Origin: an uncultured Gemmatimonadales bacterium
GTDB taxonomy: Bacteria; Gemmatimonadota; Gemmatimonadetes; Longimicrobiales; RSA9
NCBI GenBank assembly: GCA_963741945.1
Contig: CAVUKA010000005.1
Coordinates: 224,001-288,000, forward strand
DNA: 64,000 bases
Direction of reading: 5' to 3'
A program made the position numbers and the translations under genes. Positions 7,708 through 19,882 of the stretch are shown one piece after another. Positions within the stretch are counted from its first letter, which is position 1. Each line of letters begins with the position of its first letter. The notes under the pieces are model-generated. The model saw only the letters and a program-made list of their open reading frames with translations. It made no database searches and was not told where the DNA came from.

Positions 7708-8655
7708 TCACGCCGCGAAGAAGTCCCGCGCATCCTCAGGCGGGTCGTGCAGCGACCACGCAATCGCCACCCCCAGGATGGTCAGCACCACCCCCAGCGC
7801 CAGCCACACCGGGATGTGCACCACGTCGGACAACAGCATCTTCAGTCCGACGAACGACAGGATCACCGCCAGACCGGACGGCAGGCGCCGGAAAAGTCCG
7901 ATCATTCCCGCCAGCGCAAAGTACAGCGAGCGCAGTCCGAGAATGGCGAACACGTTCGAGGTGTAGACGATGAAGGCGTCCCGCGTGATCCCGAAGATCG
8001 CGGGGATGGAGTCCAGCGCGAACATCACGTCGCTCGCTTCCACCACCAGCAGCACCACGAACAGCGGTGTGGCCGCAATGATCCCGCCCCGCCGCACGAA
8101 GAACCTGTCTCCCTGATACCGTCTCAATACCGGCATCGCCCGACGCGCCAGCCGAACCACAGCGTTGTCCTTCAGGTTCATCGCCGGCCCCTTGTGCCGG
8201 AACATCTTCACGCCCGTGTAGATCAGGAACGCCCCGAAGATGTAGATGACGAACTCGAACCGGTGAATCAGCGCCGTCCCAACCAGGATCATCGACGCCC
8301 GCAGCACCAGTGCCCCCAGGATCCCCCAGAACAGCACCCGGTGCTGCAGCCGCCGCGGTACCCGGAAATACGAGAACGTCAGCGCGAACACGAACAGGTT
8401 GTCCACGCTCAGCGACAGCTCGATGATGTAGCCGGTCAGGTACTCCAGCGCCGGCTCACCCCCTTCGAACCGCCACAGCCCCAGTGCGAACACCATCGCC
8501 AGTGCAACCCACGTCCCCGTCCACGCCAGCGCCTCGCGCAGCCCCACCTCGTGCGTGCGCCGGTGGAACACGCCCAGGTCCAGCGCCAGCATCCCCAGCA
8601 CGAACCCGTTGAAGCCGATCCAGAACCAGAATGTTCTCGCGCACCGCCGCTCCAC
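7708..8655 (-). CDS. TerC/Alx family membrane protein (start uncertain)
   Basis: GY.IE.SLSVDNLFVF, QHRVLFWGILGALVLR, D.MFALDSIPAIF, TSNVFAILGLRSLYF. Confidence 0.93.
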   Translation of the reverse strand: MERRCARTFWFWIGFNGFVLGMLALDLGVFHRRTHEVGLREALAWTGTWVALAMVFALGLWRFEGGEPALEYLTGYIIELSLSVDNLFVFALTFSYFRVPRRLQHRVLFWGILGALVLRASMILVGTALIHRFEFVIYIFGAFLIYTGVKMFRHKGPAMNLKDNAVVRLARRAMPVLRRYQGDRFFVRRGGIIAATPLFVVLLVVEASDVMFALDSIPAIFGITRDAFIVYTSNVFAILGLRSLYFALAGMIGLFRRLPSGLAVILSFVGLKMLLSDVVHIPVWLALGVVLTILGVAIAWSLHDPPEDARDFFAA

Positions 8656-8837
8656 CCTCTCCCCCGCCCACGTCCACACCTCGGTGGTCCGCAGGCGATC
8701 CCGTTATTGTGGTTGCATCCTTTTCCCGCACGACCGCCCCGCCACCCTACCGTTGCGGCGGCGCATCGCCGTATTGCGCGGCACTGCGGAGCGGGTTCTA
8801 ATGTAGTGGCTTCCTCAACGACGCGAACCGCATACCC

Positions 8838-11800
8838 GTGTCGATCCTCGATCGCTTGCTGCCGGATTTCCCCGAAGACCAGAAGGGCCAGCGGACACGC
8901 CTGCTGGGCCTGATGGGTGCGTATTTCCTGGTTGTCACGGCCGTGGGGATCATGAAACCGGCGAAGAACGCGCTGGCGCTGTCGGGGCTGCCCGCGGGCA
9001 CGTTCTACAGGACATACCTGGTGAGCGTCGCGGTGATCCTGTTCGTCCCGGTATACAATCGCCTGTCGGACTGGATCGGCTGGCGAAGGCTCGTTCCGGC
9101 CGTGGCGTTCTTCTTCACTGCGACGCTGGTCCTGTTCCGGCTGGCGTACCGCGAGGGGAGCATGGTATACGGGCTCGCCTTCTACGGCTGGTACGATCTG
9201 TTCTCCGCGGCGCTGGTGACGCAGTTCTTTGCCGGGACCCAGCTGCTCCTGAACGCGCGCACGGCGCGGAGCGCGTATCCGCTGGTGATCGGGGGGGGCG
9301 CGATCGGCGCGGCGCTCGGGGGTGGGATTGCGGCGGTGCTGGCGCACGTCATCGGGACGCCGGACCTGCTGCTGGTGGCGGCTGCGTTCATTCTGGCGTT
9401 CGGGATTGCGATCCTGTTCGTGTGGCCTGAGGACATGTCGGTGGCGGAGCGAGCCCGGGCCAAGCAGATCCGGCGGCGCGAGCGCGTTTCCGTGAGTGAG
9501 TTCCGGCGCGTGTTCTCGAACCCGCACGTGCGGCTGATCGCGGTCACGGTGCTGCTGGCGATCATGACCAAGCAGTTCGTGGACTACGAGTTCAACACGC
9601 TGTCCGAGCAGCAGTTCGGGACCGTCGATGCCATCACGCGCTTCCAGGCGATCGTCGGCGTGATCGCTTCCACTCTGCCCATCCTCTCCGTGCTCGCGCT
9701 GCGGCCGGTGCTTCGGCGCTGGGGTGTGGGTGTGGCCGTCTTCATCCTCCCGGTCCTGATGCTCGTTTCCACGGCCGTGATGGCGGTCGCCTTCAGCATC
9801 TACACGGTCGTGGTCGCCCGTACGTCGGACTTGACGTTCCGCTACTCTGCGGAGCGCGCGGGGCGTGAGATCCTGTACGTCCCGGTGCCGGACGAGATCA
9901 AGCTGAAGGCGAAGACGTACATCGACGTGGCCATCGAGAAGGGGTTCGGCAAGGCGGTCACCGCCGTCGTGATCTACGCCCTCGTGGACCTGGTGGGAAT
10001 TCCGCCTGCGCGGCTGCGCTTCGTGGTGGTTGCCCTGGCACTGGCATGGCTGGGCGCCACCGTGGCCATCCGCCGCGAGTACGTTCGCACCCTCGCCCGC
10101 TCCATCCGGGGCCGCTTCGCCAGCTTTCAAGGACTGTCCGTGCTCGCCGACGCCAGCACTGCGGGCGTGGTCCGGGGCGCGCTGACGGGCAGCGACCCCG
10201 TGCAGACCTCGTTCGCCCTGGACCTGGTCGACCAGAGCGCTGCGACGGACACTGCCCCGATCAAGGATGCGCTGCACGGGCTGCTCGAACACGAGTCACC
10301 GGAAATTCGGGCCAAGGCGCTCCAGATCCTGGCGCGGGACGCTGCGGCCATCGACGTCGACCGGGTGCGAGAGCGGCTCCACGACCCGGCGCGCGCCGTC
10401 CGCGAGCAGGCCGTCCTGGCGATGGTCGCGGCGAACCGGGGAAACGAGCGGGACACGGTGGCGGAGCTCCTGCGCGACCCCGACACGGGCGTACGCACGG
10501 CCACGCTGGCGTGTCTGACCCGGGGCGATCTCACTGTCGAGGGGAGTGAGGTGCTGGACCCGGGATACCTGGACGGTCAGTGGGAGCGCGCCTACGAGGG
10601 CGACCGCAGCGCGCGCGTGGAGCTGGCGCTCGCTGCCGGAGCCATGCGGACGCACCCGCGGGCGCGCGAACTCCTGGAGCCCTTCCTCCACGACCCCGAC
10701 CCCGTCGTCTCGTCCGCCGCCATCCGCAGCGCGGGGCTCATCGGCGAGTCGGATTTCCACGCGGCCATAATCGCCGGGCTCAAGGCGCCAGGCACGCGCC
10801 ACGCGGCAAGGGAGGCGCTGGCGGAGCAGGGCCCGCGGGCCGTGGACATCCTGGGCAGCTACCTGCTGGACGAGTCGGCGCACCCCTCCATACGGCGGCA
10901 CATCCCGTCCGTGCTGGCCCGCGTGCCCGACCAGAAAGCGGCGAATCTCATGCTGCACAGCGTGGTGGCGCCGGAAACGGACCAGATCCTGGACTACCGC
11001 ACGCTGAAAGCGCTGAGCCAGCTCCGCGCTCGCTTCCCGGACCTCACGTTCGATCGGGAGCTGGTGACGGCGTCCATCCACCGGGAGGTGGACGCCGCCG
11101 CACGCTACGCCCAGGCGCGCGGGTGCCTCGACCGCCTCCAGGCGCGTGGCCCCGCCGCCGGCCTTCTCGCCCGCTCGCTGACAGAAGCGTGGGCGGAGCG
11201 GCAGGAGGGAGTCTTCAGGCTCCTGGGCCTGCTCTATCCCCACGACGAAGTGTATCGCTGCTTCCTTGCCATCCGCGGCGATGACCGGTCATCCAGCGCC
11301 AATGCCGTCGAGTGGCTCGAGGAAGTGCTCGACCGCCCCCTCTTCGAGCGGGTGGCCCCGGTCCTGGGAGAAGCACGGCTCCCGCGCGCCATGCCCGCGC
11401 CGGAATCCACGCTGGTGCCGCTCCTCACCGACGGCGATCCATGGATCGCCCGCCTCGCCGTGGCGGCACTGGTCGAGATCCGGGCAGGCTGGAGCCTGGA
11501 GGCCGTTCGTGGTATCATCGTCTCGTCCACCAGTGTCGATCTCCGCGACCTGGCCGAACGCCTGCTCGCGGATGGCAGCGCCGATATCGCCGGTCCCATG
11601 GATCTGATCGAGAAGGTATTCCTCCTCCAGAAGATCGATCTCCTCCGGGACGCCAGGAGCGCGCACCTCGCGCTGCTGGCGTCCATCGCGGAGGAGGTCG
11701 AGGTGGAGGCGGGCACGGTCCTGATCCATGAGGACGAGCCGACGGACGCCATGTACGTGGTGGTGGACGGACGCATCGAGATGCGAGGCGTGACGGACCA

Positions 11801-12008
11801 GCGTCTCCAGGCCGGACCCGGCCAGGCCTTCGGCACATGGGCGCTGATCGACGAGGCGCCCAGCCTGGTCACGGCCACGACGGTCATGCCGAGCCGGCTC
11901 CTCCGGATCACGCGCAACGAGTTCTACGATCTGCTGGCGGACCATTCCGAGATCGCCCTCGGGCTTCTCCAGGGACTGGCGCGCCGCGTTCGCACGCTGG
12001 TGGCCTGA
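8838..12008 (+). CDS. NTT (TLC/Npt1-like ATP/ADP translocase) domain fused to HEAT repeats and a C-terminal cyclic-nucleotide-binding domain
   Basis: About 12-TM N-terminus with IMKPAKNAL, FRYS.ERAGREILYVPV..EIKLKAK.YID; HEAT-like repeats (L.D....VR..A); cNMP domain EKVFLLQKIDLL...MYVVVDGRI...FGTWALID. Confidence 0.85.
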   Translation: MSILDRLLPDFPEDQKGQRTRLLGLMGAYFLVVTAVGIMKPAKNALALSGLPAGTFYRTYLVSVAVILFVPVYNRLSDWIGWRRLVPAVAFFFTATLVLFRLAYREGSMVYGLAFYGWYDLFSAALVTQFFAGTQLLLNARTARSAYPLVIGGGAIGAALGGGIAAVLAHVIGTPDLLLVAAAFILAFGIAILFVWPEDMSVAERARAKQIRRRERVSVSEFRRVFSNPHVRLIAVTVLLAIMTKQFVDYEFNTLSEQQFGTVDAITRFQAIVGVIASTLPILSVLALRPVLRRWGVGVAVFILPVLMLVSTAVMAVAFSIYTVVVARTSDLTFRYSAERAGREILYVPVPDEIKLKAKTYIDVAIEKGFGKAVTAVVIYALVDLVGIPPARLRFVVVALALAWLGATVAIRREYVRTLARSIRGRFASFQGLSVLADASTAGVVRGALTGSDPVQTSFALDLVDQSAATDTAPIKDALHGLLEHESPEIRAKALQILARDAAAIDVDRVRERLHDPARAVREQAVLAMVAANRGNERDTVAELLRDPDTGVRTATLACLTRGDLTVEGSEVLDPGYLDGQWERAYEGDRSARVELALAAGAMRTHPRARELLEPFLHDPDPVVSSAAIRSAGLIGESDFHAAIIAGLKAPGTRHAAREALAEQGPRAVDILGSYLLDESAHPSIRRHIPSVLARVPDQKAANLMLHSVVAPETDQILDYRTLKALSQLRARFPDLTFDRELVTASIHREVDAAARYAQARGCLDRLQARGPAAGLLARSLTEAWAERQEGVFRLLGLLYPHDEVYRCFLAIRGDDRSSSANAVEWLEEVLDRPLFERVAPVLGEARLPRAMPAPESTLVPLLTDGDPWIARLAVAALVEIRAGWSLEAVRGIIVSSTSVDLRDLAERLLADGSADIAGPMDLIEKVFLLQKIDLLRDARSAHLALLASIAEEVEVEAGTVLIHEDEPTDAMYVVVDGRIEMRGVTDQRLQAGPGQAFGTWALIDEAPSLVTATTVMPSRLLRITRNEFYDLLADHSEIALGLLQGLARRVRTLVA

Positions 12009-12036
12009 GCACCGCTCCCCTTCCCCTCCGTGAGAC

Positions 12037-12516
12037 ATGCCTGAGCCACAGACCGCCACCGTCATGATCGTGGACGACGAGGAGATGGTCGCCACCGCGC
12101 TCCGCAGCTTCCTCGAGCTGGAGACGTCGTACCGGATCCTCACCTACACCTCCCCGTTGACGGCGTTGGAGACCGTGGAGTCCGAGCCGGTGAACGTCGT
12201 CCTGGCGGACTTCATGATGCCGCAAATGGACGGGATCAGCTTCCTCCGTCACGTTCGGGACAGGAAGCCGCAGGCCACGCGGATCCTGCTCACGGGGTAC
12301 GCGGACAAGGAGAACGCGATCCGGGCGATCAACGAGGCAGGGCTCTATTACTACCTCGAGAAGCCGTGGAACAACGAGCACCTGAAGCTGGTGATCCGCA
12401 ACGGCGTGGAACGCTCGACGCTCTTCAACGAGCTGGAGAGCCGCGTCATGGCGCTCGAGGACGCCAACCAGGAGCTGTTCGAGATCCGGCGGCGCCTGGT
12501 GAAGGCGTTCCTGTGA
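12037..12516 (+). CDS. Response regulator (receiver plus short coiled coil, no DNA-binding domain)
   Basis: IVDDE, LADFMMPQMDG, LLTGY, EKPW. Confidence 0.93.
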   Translation: MPEPQTATVMIVDDEEMVATALRSFLELETSYRILTYTSPLTALETVESEPVNVVLADFMMPQMDGISFLRHVRDRKPQATRILLTGYADKENAIRAINEAGLYYYLEKPWNNEHLKLVIRNGVERSTLFNELESRVMALEDANQELFEIRRRLVKAFL

Positions 12517-13997
12517 CAGGGCGCGCGAGCCCGCTTTATCACCCGGTCCGCGCGCGTGCCGCCCTGGCGGCGTGGGCGTTCGGAGCGGGAATCCTCTTCC
12601 TGCTCGTCCTCCACCTGCCGCTCGATTTCCGCTTCTTCGGACTGACCGCCGTCTGGTTCGCGGCTTCCGCGCTCTCCCTCCACTGGCTCACGGGTCACCG
12701 CGGCAGACCGTACTTCTTCTTCTTCCGCTTCGCCATCTTCTCCGTGGAGGTGCTCGTGGCCGTGCTCCTGGCCCACTACGTGGGCGCGAGCAGCTGGCTG
12801 GCCACCCTCTTCCTCCTCTTCCCCACCATCGAGTGGAACATGCTCTACCCCGGGGGCTGGGGATTCGCCGGCTCGGTCCTCGCCATCATCGCCAGTGGTA
12901 CGCTGATCCTGGCCGAGGCCGTGGGGACCGTCCCCGCCGGTGCGCTGTTCCTGACCATCGAGCCGGAATATGCCGAGCCGCGCTACGCGCTGGCCGCCTT
13001 CTTCATCTCCCTTTCCGTCATTGCCGGGCTCTCCACGGTGGTGGGCCGCTACGCGGAGGCCGGGCGACGCCAGAGCCGGGAGCTGGCCCTGGCCAACGAT
13101 CGATTGACGGAGCTGTCCGACGACCTGCGCCGCTCCCACTCCGAAGTGGAGGAGGCCTACGCACAGCTGCGGAGCACGCAGGCAGAGCTGGTCGGCTCCG
13201 CCAAGCTGGCCACGCTCGGCAACCTGATCGCAGGCGTTGCGCACGAGATCAACACCCCGCTCGGCGCGCTGCACAGCAACCATGACACGATGCACCGCGC
13301 GCTGACGCGCCTCCAGGCGATCCTGGCGGACGAGGTGGTGGACGAGGACGAGCTCGAGGATGTCCGGCGCATCGTCAAGGCCGTGGACGGCGTGACGGAA
13401 ACCAACAACCTGGCCGTGGACAGGATGATGCGGCTGGTGACCAGCCTGCGGACGTTCGGCAGGGTGGACCGCTCGGAAGTGGATTTCGCCGACCTGCACG
13501 AGGGGCTGGAGAGCACGCTGGCGATCCTGGCCCACGAGCTCAAGGACCGGGTCCAGGTGGCGAAGGAATACGGGGAGCTGCCGCGCGTCGAGTGCTATCC
13601 CAACCAGGTGCACCAGGTGTTCATGAACCTCATCGTGAACGCGGCGCAGGCCATCCACGGCAGCGGAACCATCACCATTCGTACCCGGCACGAGGGGGAC
13701 CAGGTGGCCATCGATGTCGGGGACACGGGCGTGGGGATCACCGCCGAGAACGTCGCGCGCATCTTCGACCCCGGCTTCACCACGAAAGGGAAGCGGATGG
13801 GCATGGGGATGGGGCTGCTGATCACTCGCCAGATCGTGGATCGGCACCACGGCCACATCGACGTCCGCAGCGAGCCCGGCCGCGGCACGACCTTCACCGT
13901 CCGGCTCCCCGTCCGGCTCCCCGCGTCCGCGCGCCCGAATCGCGACCCTTCCACCCAAACCGCGCCCGCCGGCACGCCGGCCGGGGGGCGCCAGTAG
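12513..13997 (+). CDS. Membrane sensor histidine kinase (NtrB/NtrY-like HisKA-HATPase)
   Basis: GTGA overlap; about 6 TM; AGVAHEINTPL, QVFMNLIVNA, DTGVGI, FDPGFTTK, GMGMGL. Confidence 0.93.
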   Translation: MTGRASPLYHPVRARAALAAWAFGAGILFLLVLHLPLDFRFFGLTAVWFAASALSLHWLTGHRGRPYFFFFRFAIFSVEVLVAVLLAHYVGASSWLATLFLLFPTIEWNMLYPGGWGFAGSVLAIIASGTLILAEAVGTVPAGALFLTIEPEYAEPRYALAAFFISLSVIAGLSTVVGRYAEAGRRQSRELALANDRLTELSDDLRRSHSEVEEAYAQLRSTQAELVGSAKLATLGNLIAGVAHEINTPLGALHSNHDTMHRALTRLQAILADEVVDEDELEDVRRIVKAVDGVTETNNLAVDRMMRLVTSLRTFGRVDRSEVDFADLHEGLESTLAILAHELKDRVQVAKEYGELPRVECYPNQVHQVFMNLIVNAAQAIHGSGTITIRTRHEGDQVAIDVGDTGVGITAENVARIFDPGFTTKGKRMGMGMGLLITRQIVDRHHGHIDVRSEPGRGTTFTVRLPVRLPASARPNRDPSTQTAPAGTPAGGRQ

Positions 13998-14005
13998 GAG
14001 GTCCC

Positions 14006-14971
14006 ATGCCCAGGACCCGATCCGCCCGCTTCACGGCTCTCTCCGCGCTCCTGCTCATGCTCCTGGCCCCGCCGCTCCGGGCGCAGGGCAACTTCCTCGC
14101 GCCGGTGGACACGATCGAGGCCCGGTTGCGAGCCGGCACCTTCACCATCATGGACGAGCGCGGGTCCAGGTTCGAGGGCGACAGGACCAGCCGCGTGGCG
14201 CTGAATTTCGGGAATGATGCCATGCTGGTGGTCAAGTGGGCGCCCGCGGCCCAGGGTGGAGAGGCGTACAACAACAGCCCGCGCTACGAGGCGGCCGCCT
14301 ACGAGCTCCAGAAGCTCTTCCTGGACCGGCACGAGATCGTGGTGCCGCCCACCGTCCTGCGCGCGTTCCCCCTGACCTGGTACCGGACGCTGGATCCCCG
14401 GGCGCATGCCACGTTCCTGGACACGGAGTCCGTGCTCGTGGCGCTCCAGTACTGGCTGTTCAACGTGACTCCCGACGACTACTGGGATCCCGACCGCGTC
14501 GACACGGATACCGCCTACGCCAGGGGCATCGGGAACTTCAACATCTTCACCTACCTGGCCCGGCAGTCGGATGACAATCAGGGCAATTTCCTGATCTCCG
14601 GCGACTCCGCCGCATGTCGCGTGTATTCGGTGGACAACGGCGTGGCCTTTGCCAGCCAGGCCAGCGACCGGGGCGCCAACTGGCGACGCATCCGCATCAA
14701 ACGCCTCCCGCGCGCCACGATCGATCGTCTCCGCGCGCTCACCGAGGACAGCCTCACCGCCCGACTCGAGACTGTTGCGGAGTTCCGCGTCGCGCCCGAC
14801 GGGACCCTGGAGTCCGTGGACCCGGGGCCGAACATCTCCCCGGACCGCGGCATCCGCCGGGCCGAGAATCGTATTCAGCTCGGGCTCACGCGCGGCGAGA
14901 TCCACGGTGTCTGGCGCCGGGTGGAAGGACTGCTGCGCGACGTGGACCGCGGCCGCTACGAGCTCTTCTGA
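14006..14971 (+). CDS. Exported atypical kinase-fold protein (PI3/4K-, HipA-, FAM20-like)
   Basis: RBS AGGAGG; Sec signal ending PLRA|Q; VKW, RYEAAAYEL, VPPTV.R, DDNQGNFL, VDNG.AF motifs. Confidence 0.65.
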   Translation: MPRTRSARFTALSALLLMLLAPPLRAQGNFLAPVDTIEARLRAGTFTIMDERGSRFEGDRTSRVALNFGNDAMLVVKWAPAAQGGEAYNNSPRYEAAAYELQKLFLDRHEIVVPPTVLRAFPLTWYRTLDPRAHATFLDTESVLVALQYWLFNVTPDDYWDPDRVDTDTAYARGIGNFNIFTYLARQSDDNQGNFLISGDSAACRVYSVDNGVAFASQASDRGANWRRIRIKRLPRATIDRLRALTEDSLTARLETVAEFRVAPDGTLESVDPGPNISPDRGIRRAENRIQLGLTRGEIHGVWRRVEGLLRDVDRGRYELF

Positions 14972-15005
14972 GCGCGCCCTGCCCCCGTCCGGCGGCAGCG
15001 GGCGT

Positions 15006-15045
15006 GCAGAAGCGGCTGGCGGGGCGACCCGCCAGCCGCTTCTGC
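15006..15045. terminator. Hairpin between convergent genes, probable bidirectional terminator
   Basis: Perfect 18-bp stem GCAGAAGCGGCTGGCGGG / CCCGCCAGCCGCTTCTGC with a GCGA loop. Confidence 0.8.
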
Positions 15046-15072
15046 TTCACACCCGCCGGTGTCCCGGGGTTC

Positions 15073-18000
15073 CTATCTCGTGCCCTGCGGTCGCCCCGGC
15101 GTGTACGGTGCGCCCAGCTGATCGATCCGCACCGCCAGCGACCGGACGTCGCGCGCCACCGCGTCCACGGCGGGCCCGACCTCGGCCATCTGGTCACGGG
15201 CGATCTGCAGCTGATCGCGCTGTGTTCCCGTGGGCGCTGACGTGGATCCGTACGACGAGTACACCGCCGTCTGGACCCGGTCGCTGATCGACGGCGTGGT
15301 CTCGAACTGTCGGGTGGCCACGCTCCGGTCCCCGTCCAGCTGGACCTGCAGCTCCGCGATCCGCTCCTCCAGCGCGCGCGCCTGCTCCAGCACGCTGGTC
15401 GGCACCGTGGTCGAGCGCAGCGTGGCCTGCTTCAGGCTCGCCAGCGTCGTGGCCGCCTCGTCCAGGCGACGCGACGCGCGCATCACCTCGCCCAGCAGCC
15501 CGTCCGCTTCCTGCTGGAACGCCACCAGCGCGGCGCGGTCATCCGTGGCCAGCGTGGCGTTGTTCAGCGGGACCACCTGGAACTCCACCGGGGCCACCAT
15601 CTCCGTTGCCACGCCGTCCACCACCTTGGCCAGCGATACGCGGTAGGTCCCCGGGGCGGCGTACGGCCCGTCACGACCCTCGTCCAGCGGCTTGAAATCG
15701 CCCCGGGCGTCCACCGGCGTGCTCGCCGGATAGCGCAGGTTCCAGGCGATCCGGTGGATCCCCTTCGACGGCTTGGCCGCCATGCGCCGGACGATCTCGC
15801 CCGACGGCTTGGTCACCGTGAACAGGAGGTACGGGTCCTGCTCCCGGTCCTCCGCCCGCATCTCCTCGAAGCTCGGGTACCCCACGTCGCGTCCCGCCTC
15901 CGCGGTCTTCTTCTCCGCTTCGTGCCTCGCCTCTTCCCGCGTCTGGATGTCGTCTTTCAGGTAGTACGTGAACACCGCGCCGAACGGCGGGTTGTCCGCG
16001 CCGTAGTAGCTCTCCCCCTGGAAGCCCTTGCCGCTGTAAGCGAACGGGTCCTTCACGATGTAGAGGAGGGCATCGCGGGTCGGGAAGATGTGCGCGTCCT
16101 GCGACAGCGTGGCCGCGTCCGCGTGGCGCAGCGCCGAGTAGTCGTCCAGGATCCAGAAGCCGCGGCCGAAGGTGGCGAGAACGAGGTCGTTCTCCGGCTC
16201 GTGGATCTTCAGGTCGCGCACGGCGATGGTCGGGATCCCGCCCTTGAGCTGGATCCAGTGCTGTCCGCCGTCGCGGGTGAAGAACACGCCGAACTCGGTG
16301 CCCGCGAAGAGCAGCTGCGGATCCACCGGGTCCTCGGCGAGGGTGTACACCGAGCCGCGCTCGGGCAGGTCGCCCGCGATGGACGTCCAGTGCGCCCCCT
16401 TGTCCGTGCTCTTCAGCAGGTAGGGCTTGAAGTCTCCGTTCTTCTTGTTGTTGAACGCCGCGAACACGGTGCCCGCATCGTGCAGTGAAGCGAGGACCGC
16501 ATCCACGTATGTCCGCTCGGGCACGCCCGGGAACCGGTCGTACCGCGTCCACTGCCCGCCGGCGTCCTCCGTCACCTGGATGAGCCCGTCATCGGTGCCC
16601 ACGTAGAGCAGCCCCTCCTCCACCGGCGATTCCGTCAGCGCCACGGCGTTGCCATAGATCGTGGTGGAGACGTTCTTCGCCACAGCGTCCATCCCCCACA
16701 CCTTGCCCATGACCGGGAGCTTGTTCCGATCGAGCTGCCGGGAGAGGTCCGGGCTGATGGCGCGCCAGCTGTCGCCCCGGTCGTCGCTCCGGTACACCCG
16801 GTTGGCCGCGAAATAGAGCCGGGTGTGCGAGTGGGGGCTGATCAGGAGCGGCGAGTCCCAGTTCCAGCGCAGCGCTTCCCCCTTCTCCGGCTGCGGCTGG
16901 ATGTAGACCCCTTCGCCGCTCTTCCGGTCGTACCGCTGCAGACCGCCGTACTGGCTCTCCGCGTAGACGATGTTCGGGTTCTCCGGGTCCACCTGGCTCT
17001 GGAAGCCGTCGCCGCCCGCGGTCACGAACCAGTCCGCGTTCACGATGCCGGCGCTGGAGATCGTCCGCGATGGACCACCCATGGAGAAGTTGTCCTGCGT
17101 GCCGCCATAGACGTTGTAGAACGGCTTCTCATTGTCCAGGGCCACGTCGTAGAACTGCGTCACCGGGAGGTTCGGCTTGAACTGCCAGCTTGCGCCCCGG
17201 TCGTAGCTCTCGTAGAGGCCGCCGTCGGTGCCCATGAGGTAGTGGTCGGTATCGGCCGGGTCGATCCAGAGCGCGTGGTTGTCCACGTGCTTGTTCTTCT
17301 CGCCCACCCGCTCCCACGTCTTGCCGCCGTCCGTGGTGATCATGGCGTAGGTGTCCATGGCCACCACCAGGTCACGGTCCTTCGGGTCGCAGATCAGCTC
17401 GTTGTAGTAGTTGCCGCTGCCGTTGTAGCTGTCCCGCTTGCTCCACGACGCGCCGCGGTCCGTGGAGCGGTAGACGCCGCCCTGCTCACCGCTGGCCTCG
17501 ACGATGGCATAGATGTAGTCGGGGTCGGCCGGCGAGATGCAGAGCCCGTAGCGCCCCACATCACCGGACGGCAGCCCCTTGGTCAGCTTGCTCCAGCTCG
17601 CCCCGCCGTCGGTGGACCGGTAGAGCGCCGACTCGGGGCCGCCGCCGATGTAGGTCCAGACGTGCCGGCGCCGCTGCCACGCGGCCGCGATGAGCAGGTC
17701 CGGGTCGCGCGGGTCCATGACCAGGTCCGTGACGCCCGTGTTCTCGCTGATGTCGAGCACCTTCGACCAGGTCTTCCCACCGTCTTCGGTCTTGTACAGC
17801 CCGCGCTCACCACCCGCGCTCCAGACCGGGCCCTGCGCGGCGACGTAGACCACGTCCGTGTTGCGCGGGTCGATCACGATCCTGCCGATGTGCTCGCTCG
17901 ACTCCAGCCCGACGCGCTTCCAGCTCTTCCCGCCATCCTCGGACTTGTACACGCCGTCGCCGTAGGAGACGCTGCGCTGCGCGTTGTTCTCCCCCGTTCC

Positions 18001-18318
18001 GACCCACACCACGTGCGCGTTCGACGGGTCGAGCGCCACCACGCCGATGGAGTAGGATCCTTCGCCATCGAACAGCGGCCGATAGCTGATCCCGGCGTCC
18101 GTCGTCTTCCAGACACCGCCCGACGCCGTGGCCACGTAATACTCGGCCGGGTTCGAGGGATTCACTGCCAGGTCGGCGATCCGACCGGACGTCATGGCCG
18201 GTCCGATCTCCCGCAGCGCCAGGCCGCGATATGTCGATGCGCTGGTCTCCTGTGCCGCCGCGGGCATTGCCGCCGGCAGCAGGAGTGTCAGCGCCAGGAG
18301 GGAGCGTGCGATCCTCAT
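15073..18318 (-). CDS. Secreted VPS10/BNR (Asp-box) beta-propeller protein, usually annotated as glycosyl hydrolase
   Basis: Signal peptide; R.IGP..SGRI; many S.D.G.SW Asp-box repeats; GGTQDN; C-terminal coiled coil. Confidence 0.85.
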   Translation of the reverse strand: MRIARSLLALTLLLPAAMPAAAQETSASTYRGLALREIGPAMTSGRIADLAVNPSNPAEYYVATASGGVWKTTDAGISYRPLFDGEGSYSIGVVALDPSNAHVVWVGTGENNAQRSVSYGDGVYKSEDGGKSWKRVGLESSEHIGRIVIDPRNTDVVYVAAQGPVWSAGGERGLYKTEDGGKTWSKVLDISENTGVTDLVMDPRDPDLLIAAAWQRRRHVWTYIGGGPESALYRSTDGGASWSKLTKGLPSGDVGRYGLCISPADPDYIYAIVEASGEQGGVYRSTDRGASWSKRDSYNGSGNYYNELICDPKDRDLVVAMDTYAMITTDGGKTWERVGEKNKHVDNHALWIDPADTDHYLMGTDGGLYESYDRGASWQFKPNLPVTQFYDVALDNEKPFYNVYGGTQDNFSMGGPSRTISSAGIVNADWFVTAGGDGFQSQVDPENPNIVYAESQYGGLQRYDRKSGEGVYIQPQPEKGEALRWNWDSPLLISPHSHTRLYFAANRVYRSDDRGDSWRAISPDLSRQLDRNKLPVMGKVWGMDAVAKNVSTTIYGNAVALTESPVEEGLLYVGTDDGLIQVTEDAGGQWTRYDRFPGVPERTYVDAVLASLHDAGTVFAAFNNKKNGDFKPYLLKSTDKGAHWTSIAGDLPERGSVYTLAEDPVDPQLLFAGTEFGVFFTRDGGQHWIQLKGGIPTIAVRDLKIHEPENDLVLATFGRGFWILDDYSALRHADAATLSQDAHIFPTRDALLYIVKDPFAYSGKGFQGESYYGADNPPFGAVFTYYLKDDIQTREEARHEAEKKTAEAGRDVGYPSFEEMRAEDREQDPYLLFTVTKPSGEIVRRMAAKPSKGIHRIAWNLRYPASTPVDARGDFKPLDEGRDGPYAAPGTYRVSLAKVVDGVATEMVAPVEFQVVPLNNATLATDDRAALVAFQQEADGLLGEVMRASRRLDEAATTLASLKQATLRSTTVPTSVLEQARALEERIAELQVQLDGDRSVATRQFETTPSISDRVQTAVYSSYGSTSAPTGTQRDQLQIARDQMAEVGPAVDAVARDVRSLAVRIDQLGAPYTPGRPQGTR

Positions 18319-18484
18319 GGTTCCTATCCCGTCTTCGGGGTTCGAATTCGTGGCATCTGCCGTACGGGGGGGCCGGGGCGAAAGGTCGCGCGCCGGCAGT
18401 CACCGCGCCAGAGGTAGTCGGTGGTCGATCCGGGGCGCTCCCCGCGCCTTCCGGCGGTCCGGTGGTTCTGTTATCCTCCGCGCC

Positions 18485-19882
18485 ATGCGCACGCCCGTCC
18501 TGCTGCCCGCCCGCGAGTTCGCCTCGCTCATCCGCCTGGCGGTGCCCATCGTCACCGTCCAGGTGGGGCTCATGATGATGGGTGTGGTCGACACCATGAT
18601 GGTCGGCCGCGTCTCCGGAACGGCGCTCGCCGCCGTCGCCCTCGGCAACCTCTACTTCTTCGGCGTGGCGGTATTCGGGATGGGCGTGCTGTTCGCCCTC
18701 GATCCGGTGATCTCCCAGGCGGTGGGCGCCCGCGATGAGCCTGCCATCGCACGCGGGCTCCAGCGGGGGCTCGTGCTCGCCATCCTGCTCGCCCTCCTGT
18801 CCCTGGTCCCGCTGGCGCTGGCGCGCCCGGTGATGGTCCTGCTGCGCCAGCCCGAAGACGTGATCCCGCTGGCGACCGGCTATGTCGGCGCGGCCACTCC
18901 GGGCATCGTCGCCTTCTTCGGCTTCGTCGTGTTGCGGCAGACGCTCCAGTCCATGGACCGGGTGCGTCCGGTGGTCATCGCCATCGTGATGTCGAACCTG
19001 GTGAACGTGGCCCTGAACTGGACACTCGTCTTCGGCCATTTCGGGCTTCCCGCGCTCGGACCCGTCGGGACCGGGTGGGCGTCCACGATCAGCCGCTGGA
19101 CCATGTTTCTCGGGCTCGCCGCCCTCGCCTTCACCCGCCTCGGTCCGTATCTGAAGTCCGGCGGCCGGGAGATGCTGCGCCTGCGACCCCTCCTCCACAT
19201 GCTCCGGCTGGGCGCGCCGGTGGGCGCCCAGATGCAGCTCGAGGTGGGCGCGTTCGGAGCGGTGGCGCTCCTCATGGGGTGGCTCGGCACCGCGCAGATG
19301 GCCGGCCACCAGGTGGCCATCAATCTCGCTTCCCTCACGTTCATGGTCCCCCTCGGCATCGGGCAGGCGGGCTCCGTGCGCGTTGGACAGGCCGTGGGCC
19401 GGGGCGACAGCGCCGCTGCCCGCAACGCCGTCAAAGCCGCGCTCCTTGGCGGCGTGGCGTTCATGAGCTGCACCGCCGTGCTCTTCCTCACGTCGCCGGC
19501 CCTGCTCACGAACCTCTATACCGATGACCCGGCGGTCACTGCCGTGGCCCTCACCCTGATCCCGATCGCCGGCTTCTTCCAGGTCTTCGATGGGCTGCAG
19601 GTGGTGAGCGCCGGCGTGCTGCGGGGCGTGGGCGACACGACGGCGCCGTTCCTGGCCAATCTGGTCTCCTTCTGGATGCTCGGCCTCCCTGTCGGCGTGT
19701 ACCTGGCCTTCGCCACCAGCGCCGGGCCGAAGGGGCTCTGGTGGGGGCTCACACTGGGGCTCGCAGGCGTGGCCGTGTTCCTCGTGGCCCGGGTGCGCGT
19801 GCGGATGCGGCGCGAGCTGAGCCGACTCGTGATCGACCAGGACAGCGCGCCCCGCCGGCGCGTGGCCCCGGACGCCGCCTGA
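18485..19882 (+). CDS. MATE family efflux transporter (NorM-like)
   Basis: DTMMVGR, FMVPLGIG.A.SVRVG, FQVFDGLQ...GVLRG.GDT. Confidence 0.93.
   Translation: MRTPVLLPAREFASLIRLAVPIVTVQVGLMMMGVVDTMMVGRVSGTALAAVALGNLYFFGVAVFGMGVLFALDPVISQAVGARDEPAIARGLQRGLVLAILLALLSLVPLALARPVMVLLRQPEDVIPLATGYVGAATPGIVAFFGFVVLRQTLQSMDRVRPVVIAIVMSNLVNVALNWTLVFGHFGLPALGPVGTGWASTISRWTMFLGLAALAFTRLGPYLKSGGREMLRLRPLLHMLRLGAPVGAQMQLEVGAFGAVALLMGWLGTAQMAGHQVAINLASLTFMVPLGIGQAGSVRVGQAVGRGDSAAARNAVKAALLGGVAFMSCTAVLFLTSPALLTNLYTDDPAVTAVALTLIPIAGFFQVFDGLQVVSAGVLRGVGDTTAPFLANLVSFWMLGLPVGVYLAFATSAGPKGLWWGLTLGLAGVAVFLVARVRVRMRRELSRLVIDQDSAPRRRVAPDAA

Follow-up and report, generated by a model that had tools for sequence, protein, structure and literature searches.

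Fusions of NTT carriers to HEAT repeats, alone (NTT-HEAT) or followed by a further cNBD domain (NTT-HEAT-cNBD), were published for free-living bacteria in 2017 with a function stated to be unknown, and the available text of that study places Gemmatimonadetes among the taxa sampled and proposes that cAMP controls ATP uptake (Major, Embley and Williams, PMC5381601). AtNTT1 and CpNTT1, plastid and chlamydial carriers of 12 helices with solved structures (9j3j, 9j3l, 9j3m, 9j3n), import ATP into an ATP-poor compartment and lack cytoplasmic HEAT and CNB domains. In the one bacterial NTT that has been dissected biochemically, import of ATP is preferred and a single orientation is functional (PMC1951785). 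Supplied with ADP from outside, NTT carriers expressed in cyanobacteria and in E. coli export ATP (PMC11632070). We found nothing in print that links such a carrier to an exported kinase.

The Fam20 secretory-pathway kinases (Fam20C, Fam20B, and Hydra Fam20; 5xom, 5yh3, 4kqb) are 13–17% identical to the putative kinase described here (gene 4 below), which is smaller (295 mature residues) and belongs to a bacterium. The type II phosphatidylinositol 4-kinases PI4KIIα and PI4KIIβ (4hne, 9hhm, 4wtv) also resemble it in fold, with all Pfam matches shown for the gene 4 family falling below the gathering score. PI4K-II, a palmitoylated lipid kinase, is cytosolic, and we saw no phosphoinositide context around gene 4. 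The secreted Helicobacter pylori kinase CtkA (3akk), which acts on host cells and is not carrier-linked, matches gene 4 much more weakly.

A four-gene locus closed by a hairpin

The locus lies in a 64,000-nucleotide stretch of DNA (the window) from an uncultured Gemmatimonadales bacterium. The host is a soil-type bacterium. The features are as follows, with gene 1 subdivided by residue.

8838..12008, + strand: gene 1, 1056 amino acids; NTT/TLC carrier, HEAT solenoid, and cNMP-binding-fold domain
Gene 1 residues 1 to ~430: 12-helix NTT/TLC-type carrier
Gene 1 residues ~439–911: HEAT-like helical solenoid
Gene 1 residues ~923–1055: cNMP-binding-fold domain with a degenerate phosphate-binding cassette
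12037..12516, + strand: gene 2, 159 amino acids; receiver-only response regulator
12513..13997, + strand: gene 3, 494 amino acids from a GTG at 12513; histidine kinase
14006..14971, + strand: gene 4, 321 amino acids; predicted exported atypical kinase of PI4K-II/Fam20 fold
14006..14083, + strand: predicted Sec signal peptide of gene 4 (residues 1–26, read from sequence)
15006..15045, no strand: hairpin with an 18-bp stem and GCGA loop, between convergent genes

An ORF check of the window gave intergenic gaps of 28, –4, and 8 nt, the start of gene 3 overlapping the stop of gene 2 by 4 nt. Downstream, between gene 4 and a convergent gene at 15073–18318 (– strand), the two 18-nt arms of the hairpin (15006–15023 and 15028–15045) are 100% complementary across a 4-nt loop, and the 66-nt hairpin stretch folds at –54.6 kcal/mol (z = –8.2), a stability equaled by 0 of 200 shuffled sequences. 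The hairpin has no T-run, was not called by a consensus terminator scan of the window, and is probably a two-way transcription stop that works without a U-tract. An earlier sequence-only reading of this DNA had described four co-oriented genes closed by a perfect hairpin; coordinates, gaps, and the 18-bp stem were all reproduced, confirming the observation, and the interpretation placed upon it is partly supported by the results below.

Gene 1 belongs to the NTT/TLC family

Pfam matches to gene 1 (TLC, 1.1e-7; HEAT_2, 5.7e-16; cNMP_binding, 8e-15) and the domains of its model support the proposed NTT-HEAT-cNMP fusion, and the order of NTT, HEAT, and PF00027 domains within one protein is the three-part architecture of the published NTT-HEAT-cNBD proteins, next to which the available text of PMC5381601 names no exported kinase, phosphatase, or two-component pair. 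With a TLC (PF03219) cut-off of 21 bits, full-length gene 1 scored 31.5 and its isolated transmembrane (TM) domain 37.1, and TLC was matched at E ≤ 0.01 in 18 of 20 orthologues (best 1.4e-16). Twelve long helices precede residue 425 in the AF2 model (pLDDT 81.9), forming an MFS-like fold closest to the solved NTTs. A profile of 20 orthologous TM domains found AtNTT1 (9j3j_A) at 1e-12 and 9j3n_A at 2.9e-10, with the next MFS protein at 0.12, and Foldseek returned 9j3m_A, 9j3l_A, and 9j3n_A with TMt values of 0.71, 0.70, and 0.66, at 16% identity by structural alignment. LacY matched the fold about equally well (TMt 0.70), so fold alone cannot discriminate the carrier family and the substrate could be another nucleotide or a cofactor. 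Gene 1 is an NTT/TLC-family carrier and a putative nucleotide transporter.

The C-terminal domain matched PF00027 well and yet its phosphate-binding cassette, FGTWALIDEAPSLVTATT, is degenerate when aligned with that of Mycobacterium tuberculosis CRP, FGELSIFDPGPRTSSATT. In this alignment, two residues that contact the cyclic nucleotide in cAMP/cGMP-binding domains, the Glu of FGE and the Arg of PR[ST]A, are absent from gene 1, where Thr1000 and Ser1009, respectively, replace them. Thr1000, Trp1001, Pro1008, and Ser1009 are each at least 90% conserved among 20 orthologues. Cyclic-nucleotide gating of the carrier, as the sequence-only reading had it, is therefore doubtful, and gene 1 departs from the cAMP-controlled uptake proposed in the available text of PMC5381601 both in this cassette and in a gene context that points to export.

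Genes 2 and 3 form a two-component pair

Gene 2 matched Response_reg (4.1e-25, residues 9–120) and consists of a receiver domain and a C-terminal helix with no output domain; its best NCBIfam match, far under the cut-off, was to NF053512, a model of an HD-GYP-type regulator, over the model's N-terminal 145 positions (3.5e-43). The acidic-pocket residues of a receiver (DD, the D of ADFMMP, T, and K) are present in the translation. Gene 3 has four hydrophobic segments by crude hydropathy and a hydrophobic N-terminal region (residues ~17–177), followed by a DHp and a catalytic ATPase domain (HATPase_c, 2.4e-27; HisKA, 8.5e-5, under the Pfam cut-off at 23.0 vs 26.9), with the H-box AHEINTP read from the translation. 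A histidine kinase thus adjoins a receiver protein, and the regulator carries no DNA-binding domain, as had been claimed.

Gene 4 is predicted to be an exported kinase

Gene 4 itself had no Pfam or NCBIfam match. PF00454 (PI3/PI4-kinase) was not matched at its curated threshold and gave weak matches in 26 of 39 relatives (best 6.8e-6; scores shown, 16.3–19.8 bits against a cut-off of 27.1), and PF06702 (Fam20) did not match gene 4 and reached 3 of the 39 relatives at E 0.064 or worse. Structure and catalytic residues support assignment to a kinase fold. The model has two lobes and scores highly over most of the domain against PI3/4K and Fam20 structures; the top matches were a glycan kinase (5xom_A and, with sugar, 5xoo_A) and PI4KIIα and β, with Z equal to that of Fam20C. 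Conserved motifs occur in order at Lys77 (VKW), Glu95, Asp189 to Asn194 (DDNQGN), and Asp210-Asn211-Gly212, where Asp189 and Asn194 align with the D and N of Vps34 GDRHLDN and Asp210 with the D of IDFG, the ATP-binding Lys and helix-C Glu being assigned from position and order only. Across 60 divergent family sequences, Lys77, Asp189, and Asp210 are invariant, and Glu95 and Asn194 are at least 90% conserved.

The N-terminus, MPRTRSARFTALSALLLMLLAPPLRA followed by QG, resembles a signal peptide, for which we propose cleavage between LRA and QG; residues 1–30 of the model have low confidence, with a helix at 9–19. Judged by eye and by a crude hydropathy-and-charge script, the pattern recurs in the family: of 117 relatives whose N-terminus is complete, 113 scored as signal-like, and the remaining four also look like signal peptides. 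A hydrophobic stretch followed by A-x-A-Q-D/G is conserved among the relatives. Lack of a kinase fold or of export in gene 4 had been set beforehand as grounds for giving up the proposal; we found the fold with an intact catalytic set and a conserved signal-peptide-like N-terminus, which support a predicted exported kinase of the PI4K-II/Fam20 fold.

Carrier and kinase are linked across genomes

The sequence-only reading had also named a lack of conserved linkage between NTT fusions and exported kinases in other genomes as grounds for rejection; multiple comparisons show instead that this carrier subfamily and the exported kinase are strongly linked. First, among 80 loci with a gene 4 relative, 38 had the order carrier, regulator, histidine kinase, kinase; five had the carrier directly upstream; and one had it downstream. 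Leaving out 20 loci too short to tell, the carrier was present in cis at 44 of 60 informative loci, and the other 16 had none within at least 5.5 kb upstream. Second, the kinase occurs in 12 of 201 genomes of the phylum, and exactly these 12 encode the carrier TM domain at E < 1e-80, always adjacent to the kinase, on the same strand, and 2.5–5.3 kb away; the next best match was 6e-41. Third, the pair persists in other gene orders, as in locus L030 and in the Bacteroidota-labeled L024, where kinase, NTT-HEAT protein, and phosphatase follow one another with gaps of 127 and 16 nt. Finally, one protein, P0144, fuses a TLC domain to a kinase whose hydrophobic leader follows the twelfth helix and would place the kinase outside, although this single sequence on one contig may be a gene-calling or assembly artefact.

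Five genomes carry a kinase copy away from a carrier. Four of them have one strong carrier orthologue (E ≤ 1e-117), lying 74 kb to 1 Mb from the kinase in three complete genomes and beside a second kinase copy in the fourth; the fifth (G204, completeness not established) combines two kinase copies with nothing stronger than a weak TLC match (2e-27). G204 and the 16 loci without a carrier in cis count against a single module. Weaker TLC-type paralogues without a gene 4-type kinase occur in 77 of the 201 genomes, so such carriers have other roles too. Among distant NTT-HEAT paralogues of the phylum, 3 of 14 loci adjoin further exported proteins that carry PPDK_N, an ATP-binding domain, a point in favor of the export model below.

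An exported Shelph-type PPP phosphatase, with a signal or lipoprotein-like N-terminus, lies within 3 kb downstream of the kinase at 49 of the 75 loci whose flanks are long enough, and five proteins (P0122, P0125, P0270, P0271, P0272) fuse the kinase to a Metallophos domain. Its nearest solved relative is the Shewanella cold-active protein-tyrosine phosphatase (1v73, 2z72; 2z72_A at 3.6e-39), relative to which it is extended at the N-terminus by a further domain of ~140 residues bearing a GEYGLWV motif. A search of the window's genome found no Shelph-type phosphatase, and its absence where most relatives have one also argues against the module. We read the four genes as one conserved functional module of Gemmatimonadota, within the model set out next, for which the odds are about even.

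A model for ATP-fueled phosphorylation outside the inner membrane

In the model that we regard as the best reading, with chances for and against it evenly weighted, ATP exported through the carrier feeds the exported kinase. Gene 1 would reside in the inner membrane, with its HEAT and CNB-fold domains and both termini on the cytoplasmic side, exchanging cytoplasmic ATP for periplasmic ADP and thereby supplying the phosphate donor and taking back the product. Gene 4, made with a Sec signal peptide, would be active as a phosphotransferase outside the inner membrane, and the Shelph-type phosphatase, where present, would reverse the mark; the window's genome has the kinase without this counterpart. 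The receiver-only regulator and histidine kinase may adjust the activity of the carrier, or of the module, through protein contact and not by DNA binding. Proteins are the favored target, given the resemblance of the usual partner to a protein-tyrosine phosphatase. Against export, periplasmic ATP would leak through porins.

Alternatively, carrier and kinase might be co-regulated by one signal without metabolic coupling, the carrier importing a nucleotide or related solute and the kinase (with the phosphatase, where present) using another donor on envelope or external substrates. Characterized NTTs import in their natural setting (PMC1951785; PMC5381601), and the kinase-free TLC paralogues and the distances between carrier and kinase in the three complete genomes fit this arrangement. 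It is nevertheless unlikely, given the occurrence of strong carrier orthologues and kinase in exactly the same genomes and a linkage that survives changes in gene order and phylum label. The kinase also retains every element of the ATP-type catalytic set found in PI3/4K-like kinases, and no phosphate donor other than ATP is known for this fold.

We consider it similarly improbable that the coupling is as modeled and gene 4 is not a protein kinase, phosphorylating an envelope lipid head group or glycan or transferring AMP. PI4K-II acts on lipid head groups, Fam20B and Hydra Fam20 act on glycans, and some atypical kinase folds transfer AMP; consistent with such activities, glycan and lipid kinases are the top structural matches, with Z the same as for Fam20C, and some kinase copies adjoin a PMT_2-type glycosyltransferase and outer-membrane proteins. 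The commonest neighbor and fusion partner, a PPP enzyme nearest a protein-tyrosine phosphatase, speaks against them, weakly, because its family also holds nucleotide pyrophosphatases such as ApaH.

The tight pairing and the one direct fusion could also be explained if gene 4 were a periplasmic nucleotide-binding accessory that captures nucleotides and hands them to or from the carrier. This is a long shot, as near-invariance of the catalytic Asp189 and the metal-binding Asn and Asp over 60 divergent members is not needed for binding alone, and a phosphatase partner better fits a modification cycle. A chance neighborhood of four unrelated genes is contradicted by conserved synteny and co-occurrence and can be virtually dismissed.

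Beyond this locus, we suggest, with somewhat less assurance than for the ATP-export model itself, that some diderm bacteria run an ATP-fueled, reversible periplasmic phosphorylation in which a regulated NTT-HEAT carrier supplies the nucleotide, the kinase writes, and the Shelph-type phosphatase erases, and that NTT-HEAT carriers of free-living bacteria may be nucleotide suppliers for exported ATP-dependent enzymes. If true, this arrangement would give bacteria an equivalent of the secretory-pathway kinases of eukaryotes with their ATP carriers, and it would contradict the view of a periplasm without ATP.

Organization of the gene cluster

ORF and repeat analysis of the window, whose G+C content is ~70%, bore out the sequence-only reading of four packed plus-strand genes, with intergenic gaps of 28, -4, and 8 nt, closed by a perfect 18-bp hairpin.

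Features of the cluster
8838-12008, plus strand: ORF of gene 1, a carrier of the NTT/TLC type with HEAT and cNMP-type (CNB) domains
12037-12516, plus strand: ORF of gene 2, a receiver
12513-13997, plus strand: ORF of gene 3, a histidine kinase, counted from a GTG overlapping the gene 2 stop
14006-14971, plus strand: ORF of gene 4, the candidate exported kinase
15006-15023 / 15028-15045, 3' of gene 4: perfect 18-bp inverted repeat with a 4-nt loop

The hairpin, located between gene 4 and a convergent gene for a 1081-aa Sortilin/BNR protein, stood out in folding from shuffled sequence (z = -8.2; 0 of 200 shuffles equaled it). It has no U-tract, and a consensus scan called no terminator there; across positions 8000-16000, consensus scanning found no canonical terminator or sigma-70 promoter except for one weak minus-strand site within gene 4.

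The convergent gene (15073-18318, minus strand) encodes a Sortilin/VPS10-BNR repeat protein with a signal-like start and is kept downstream in the loci of the nearest relatives (L002, L003, L005, and L007). A DUF6941 gene intervenes before it in L002, L003, and L007 and is absent from the window. Beyond it lies a MatE exporter gene (18317-19882, plus strand). A gene for a TerC-family membrane protein (7708-8679, minus strand) is divergent from gene 1 and is not a conserved neighbor among the fetched loci.

Gene 4 and an undescribed family within the PI3/4K-Fam20 fold group

Pfam and NCBIfam gave no match for gene 4 itself, and its named relatives are all annotated as 'hypothetical protein'. 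Several lines of evidence bear on its identity. First, a model built from 39 relatives (pLDDT 91.0, pTM 0.87) placed PI4KIIα (9.5e-7) and Hydra Fam20 (2.1e-6) at the top of a Foldseek search, with a clear step down in the structural matches to H. pylori CtkA (11.7) and to Vps34 and PI4KIIIβ (about 10). Second, the ordered kinase motifs read from the sequence held up: Lys77, Asp189, and Asp210 are invariant across 60 family members, the most distant at 28% identity, Glu95, Asn194, and Asn211 are at least 90% conserved in the same set, and a wide profile (A4) aligned with Vps34 at an E value of 0.01, with Asp189 through Asn194 on GDRHLDN and Asp210 on IDFG. A close-family profile (A1) run against solved structures gave chance-level matches only (tyrosyl-tRNA synthetase, E 0.75). 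Third, PF00454 was weakly matched by 26 of the 39 relatives (best 6.8e-6), ABC1 was touched by five, and Fam20C by three; gene 4 falls short of the curated cut-offs for both named Pfam families and is therefore filed in neither. Finally, the protein begins with positively charged residues, followed by a hydrophobic core and the sequence LRA|QG, and a crude test detected a signal-like N-terminus ending in A-x-A-Q-D/G in 113 of the 117 relatives whose N-terminus is complete; those of the remaining four also resemble signal peptides. Gene 4 thus falls within the PI3/4K-Fam20 fold group as a member of a family not described before; its catalytic set is intact, it has a putative export signal, and it is quite probably an active exported kinase.

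The family numbers 916 proteins in a near-length search, 664 representatives at 50% identity among 1.84 billion, and 227 confirmed stretches among species genomes. Judged by record titles it is mostly from Gemmatimonadota, with a few members labeled Bacteroidota, Calditrichota, or Deltaproteobacteria. Copies in four loci (L021, L028, L037, and L053) are flanked by Hanks-type Ser/Thr kinases; the idea that these neighbors are also exported was dropped, as their two N-terminal hydrophobic segments probably leave the kinase domains in the cytoplasm.

Gene 1 is an NTT-type carrier with an altered cNMP-type domain

Pfam detected TLC (31.5 bits; cut-off 21), HEAT repeats, and cNMP_binding in gene 1, and TLC was matched at E ≤ 0.01 in 18 of 20 carrier orthologs (best 1.4e-16). 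A profile of the 20 orthologous transmembrane domains matched two solved NTTs, the plastid ATP/ADP carrier AtNTT1 at 1e-12 and another at 2.9e-10, with the next MFS protein at only 0.12. In the AlphaFold2 model (pLDDT 81.9), 12 long helices extend to residue 425 and are followed by a helical solenoid (439-911) and a β-rich domain (923-1055). The transmembrane part superposes on AtNTT1 and C. pneumoniae NTT1 with TM-scores (TMt) of 0.66-0.71; because LacY superposes about equally well (0.70), the family assignment rests on the profile rather than the fold. From the 12-helix layout and a central loop rich in Lys/Arg, we infer that the two ends of the protein face the cytoplasm, which places the HEAT and CNB domains there as well. 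Foldseek ranked the whole model beside the sperm Na+/H+ exchanger SLC9C1 (ranks 1-5), a transporter that likewise carries a cytoplasmic cNMP-binding domain; with a global TM-score of only ~0.1, the resemblance is one of layout and implies no relationship.

The NTT-HEAT-cNBD architecture was published in 2017 by Major, Embley and Williams (PMC5381601); that paper includes Gemmatimonadetes among the sampled taxa, gives the function as unknown, and speculates about cAMP-controlled ATP uptake. Our literature search found no functional study of NTT-HEAT proteins.

The sequence-only reading proposed that the carrier may be gated by a cyclic nucleotide, which comparison of the nucleotide-binding cassettes did not support. 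When the cassette of gene 1, FGTWALIDEAPSLVTATT, is aligned with that of M. tuberculosis CRP, FGELSIFDPGPRTSSATT, the CRP Glu corresponds to Thr1000 and the CRP Arg to Ser1009, and each of these substitutions shows a conservation of at least 90% among 20 orthologs. The Glu and Arg of the cassette are the residues that we take to hold the ribose and cyclic phosphate. The domain is thus probably not a cyclic-nucleotide sensor, and it may bind another ligand or none.

The kinase and its carrier occur together

Eighty loci with a gene 4 relative were fetched. Because a rough GC3-based gene caller missed gene 4 in 13 of them, mostly those of lower GC, the arrangements were counted from tblastn.

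Arrangement of carrier, receiver (RR), histidine kinase (HK), and kinase genes in 80 loci
Carrier, RR, HK, kinase (full order): 38 of 80
Carrier directly upstream, no two-component pair: 5 of 80
Carrier downstream: 1 of 80 (L030)
No carrier within at least 5.5 kb upstream: 16 of 80
Cut by contig ends: 20 of 80

The expected linkage of carrier and exported kinase was therefore found in cis in 44 (38 + 5 + 1) of the 60 informative loci. In four of the five loci with the carrier directly upstream (L036, L042, L046, and L047), the carrier takes a shorter form (818-825 aa). With G073:C29 included, this form has about 815-825 aa, a weak HEAT signal, and a retained cNMP domain; no two-component pair separates it from the kinase, and the opposite strand carries a receiver gene just beyond. 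One of the 16 loci without a carrier (L067) still has visible CNB, RR, and HK parts.

The same linkage appeared at the level of genomes. The kinase is present in 12 of 201 genomes sampled from the phylum, and the carrier transmembrane domain was matched at E < 1e-80 in exactly these 12, on the same strand and 2.5-5.3 kb from the kinase. The next best carrier match was 6e-41, and 77 further genomes of the 201 have only weaker paralogs; this count takes in one genome flagged as unpublished (G057). The window's genome carries the kinase and the carrier in a single copy apiece. Among five genomes with a solitary kinase copy, four have one strong carrier ortholog. In three complete chromosomes it is 74 kb, 0.38 Mb, and 1.0 Mb from the kinase, and in the fourth genome it adjoins a second kinase copy; the fifth genome has no strong ortholog.

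Two further arrangements join the same parts. A contig labeled Bacteroidota (L024) encodes the kinase, a 924-aa NTT-HEAT protein with only 27-28% identity to gene 1, and a phosphatase, separated by gaps of 127 and 16 nt. In protein P0144, a TLC carrier is fused to the kinase, whose hydrophobic leader is retained after the twelfth helix, a position that would put the kinase outside; as a single sequence on a single contig, this fusion is weak evidence. We are highly confident that the four genes form one functional module.

The kinase link is specific to the subfamily of the gene 1 carrier, because kinase and phosphatase profiles matched nothing within ~8 kb in 14 loci of distant NTT-HEAT paralogs in the phylum. 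Among these loci, L086, L087, and L089 again pair the carrier with a cNMP protein encoded separately and with two-component genes, which are for a receiver and PAS histidine kinases in L086 and L087 and for a hybrid kinase in L089; the neighbors scanned in L084 and L085 include the cNMP protein only. The carriers of L089, L091, and L095 adjoin 1000-1400-aa proteins with a PPDK_N ATP-binding domain (L089:10490-13525, L091:5660-8926, L095:8675-12808, and the genes after) and β-lactamase-like proteins. Of the three PPDK_N proteins, those of L089 and L091 show signal-peptide-like segments, as do the β-lactamase-like proteins of L091 and L095. These neighborhoods are consistent with NTT-HEAT carriers serving a variety of exported enzymes that use ATP, and they may be a second case of such a pairing.

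Partners of the carrier and kinase

Gene 2 consists of a receiver and a C-terminal helix, with no output domain, and among models it best matches the N-terminal portion of HD-GYP-type regulators. The gene 3 histidine kinase has a hydrophobic N-terminal region, a feature present in the window's clade. In many related clusters the histidine kinase has ~250-310 aa (DHp plus ATPase) and lacks this region (L008:8985-9731, L018:8754-9548, L038:4994-5770, and similar). Another protein of the module may therefore provide the input.

The commonest neighbor of the kinase is a ~430-aa protein, a putative exported phosphatase of the Shelph-type PPP family, encoded immediately downstream in 49 of the 75 loci whose flank is long enough to tell (L008, L009, L014, L018, L041, and others). 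It carries a Metallophos domain, a conserved GEYGLWV N-domain, and a signal-peptide or lipoprotein-like N-terminus; its nearest solved relative is a cold-active protein-tyrosine phosphatase from Shewanella (3.6e-39), and ApaH-type enzymes are weaker relatives. Five proteins (P0122, P0125, P0270, P0271, and P0272) are kinase-phosphatase fusions. A one-protein search and a 17-sequence profile did not find this partner in the window's genome (96.7% complete), in a same-genus relative, or in genome G167; in the window's clade, the kinase stands without the phosphatase.

Seven loci (L034, L045, L051, L064, L066, L069, and L072) have kinase-phosphatase pairs without a carrier in cis, beside a PMT_2-type glycosyltransferase and a small conserved unknown protein; the longer ones also encode a chemoreceptor, a periplasmic binding protein, and an outer-membrane barrel. 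In P0207 and P0273, the kinase is fused to a class-A β-lactamase-like domain.

A possible periplasmic ATP economy

The best reading of the module, which we hold at about an even chance, is that the carrier supplies ATP to the exported kinase. The carrier would export ATP in exchange for ADP and so fuel the kinase, the two-component pair would act on the module by protein contact, and the phosphatase, where present, would reverse the mark of the kinase. Support for ATP export comes from NTT carriers in cyanobacteria and E. coli, which release ATP upon addition of external ADP according to one study (PMC11632070). Against it, the best-studied bacterial NTT is reported to prefer import and to have one functional orientation only (PMC1951785), the identity of gene 1 to characterized NTTs is low, and many TLC paralogs have no kinase nearby.

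The folds of the parts and the carrier fusion were already known. Our literature search found nothing in print on the gene 4 kinase family or its pairing with a dedicated NTT carrier, nor on the exported phosphatase partner or the implied periplasmic ATP economy. The parts of the module are small and expressible, which makes the idea directly testable.

Textbooks assume a periplasm devoid of ATP and account for envelope machines on that assumption. If the reading of ATP supply is true, some bacteria would energize extracytoplasmic chemistry directly, by pairing a dedicated, regulated ATP/ADP exchanger with an exported kinase and, in most cases, a phosphatase. A first function would also be assigned to the NTT-HEAT(-cNBD) carriers, which are widespread and have lacked an explanation since 2017, and phosphorylation of the secretory-pathway type would not be exclusively eukaryotic.
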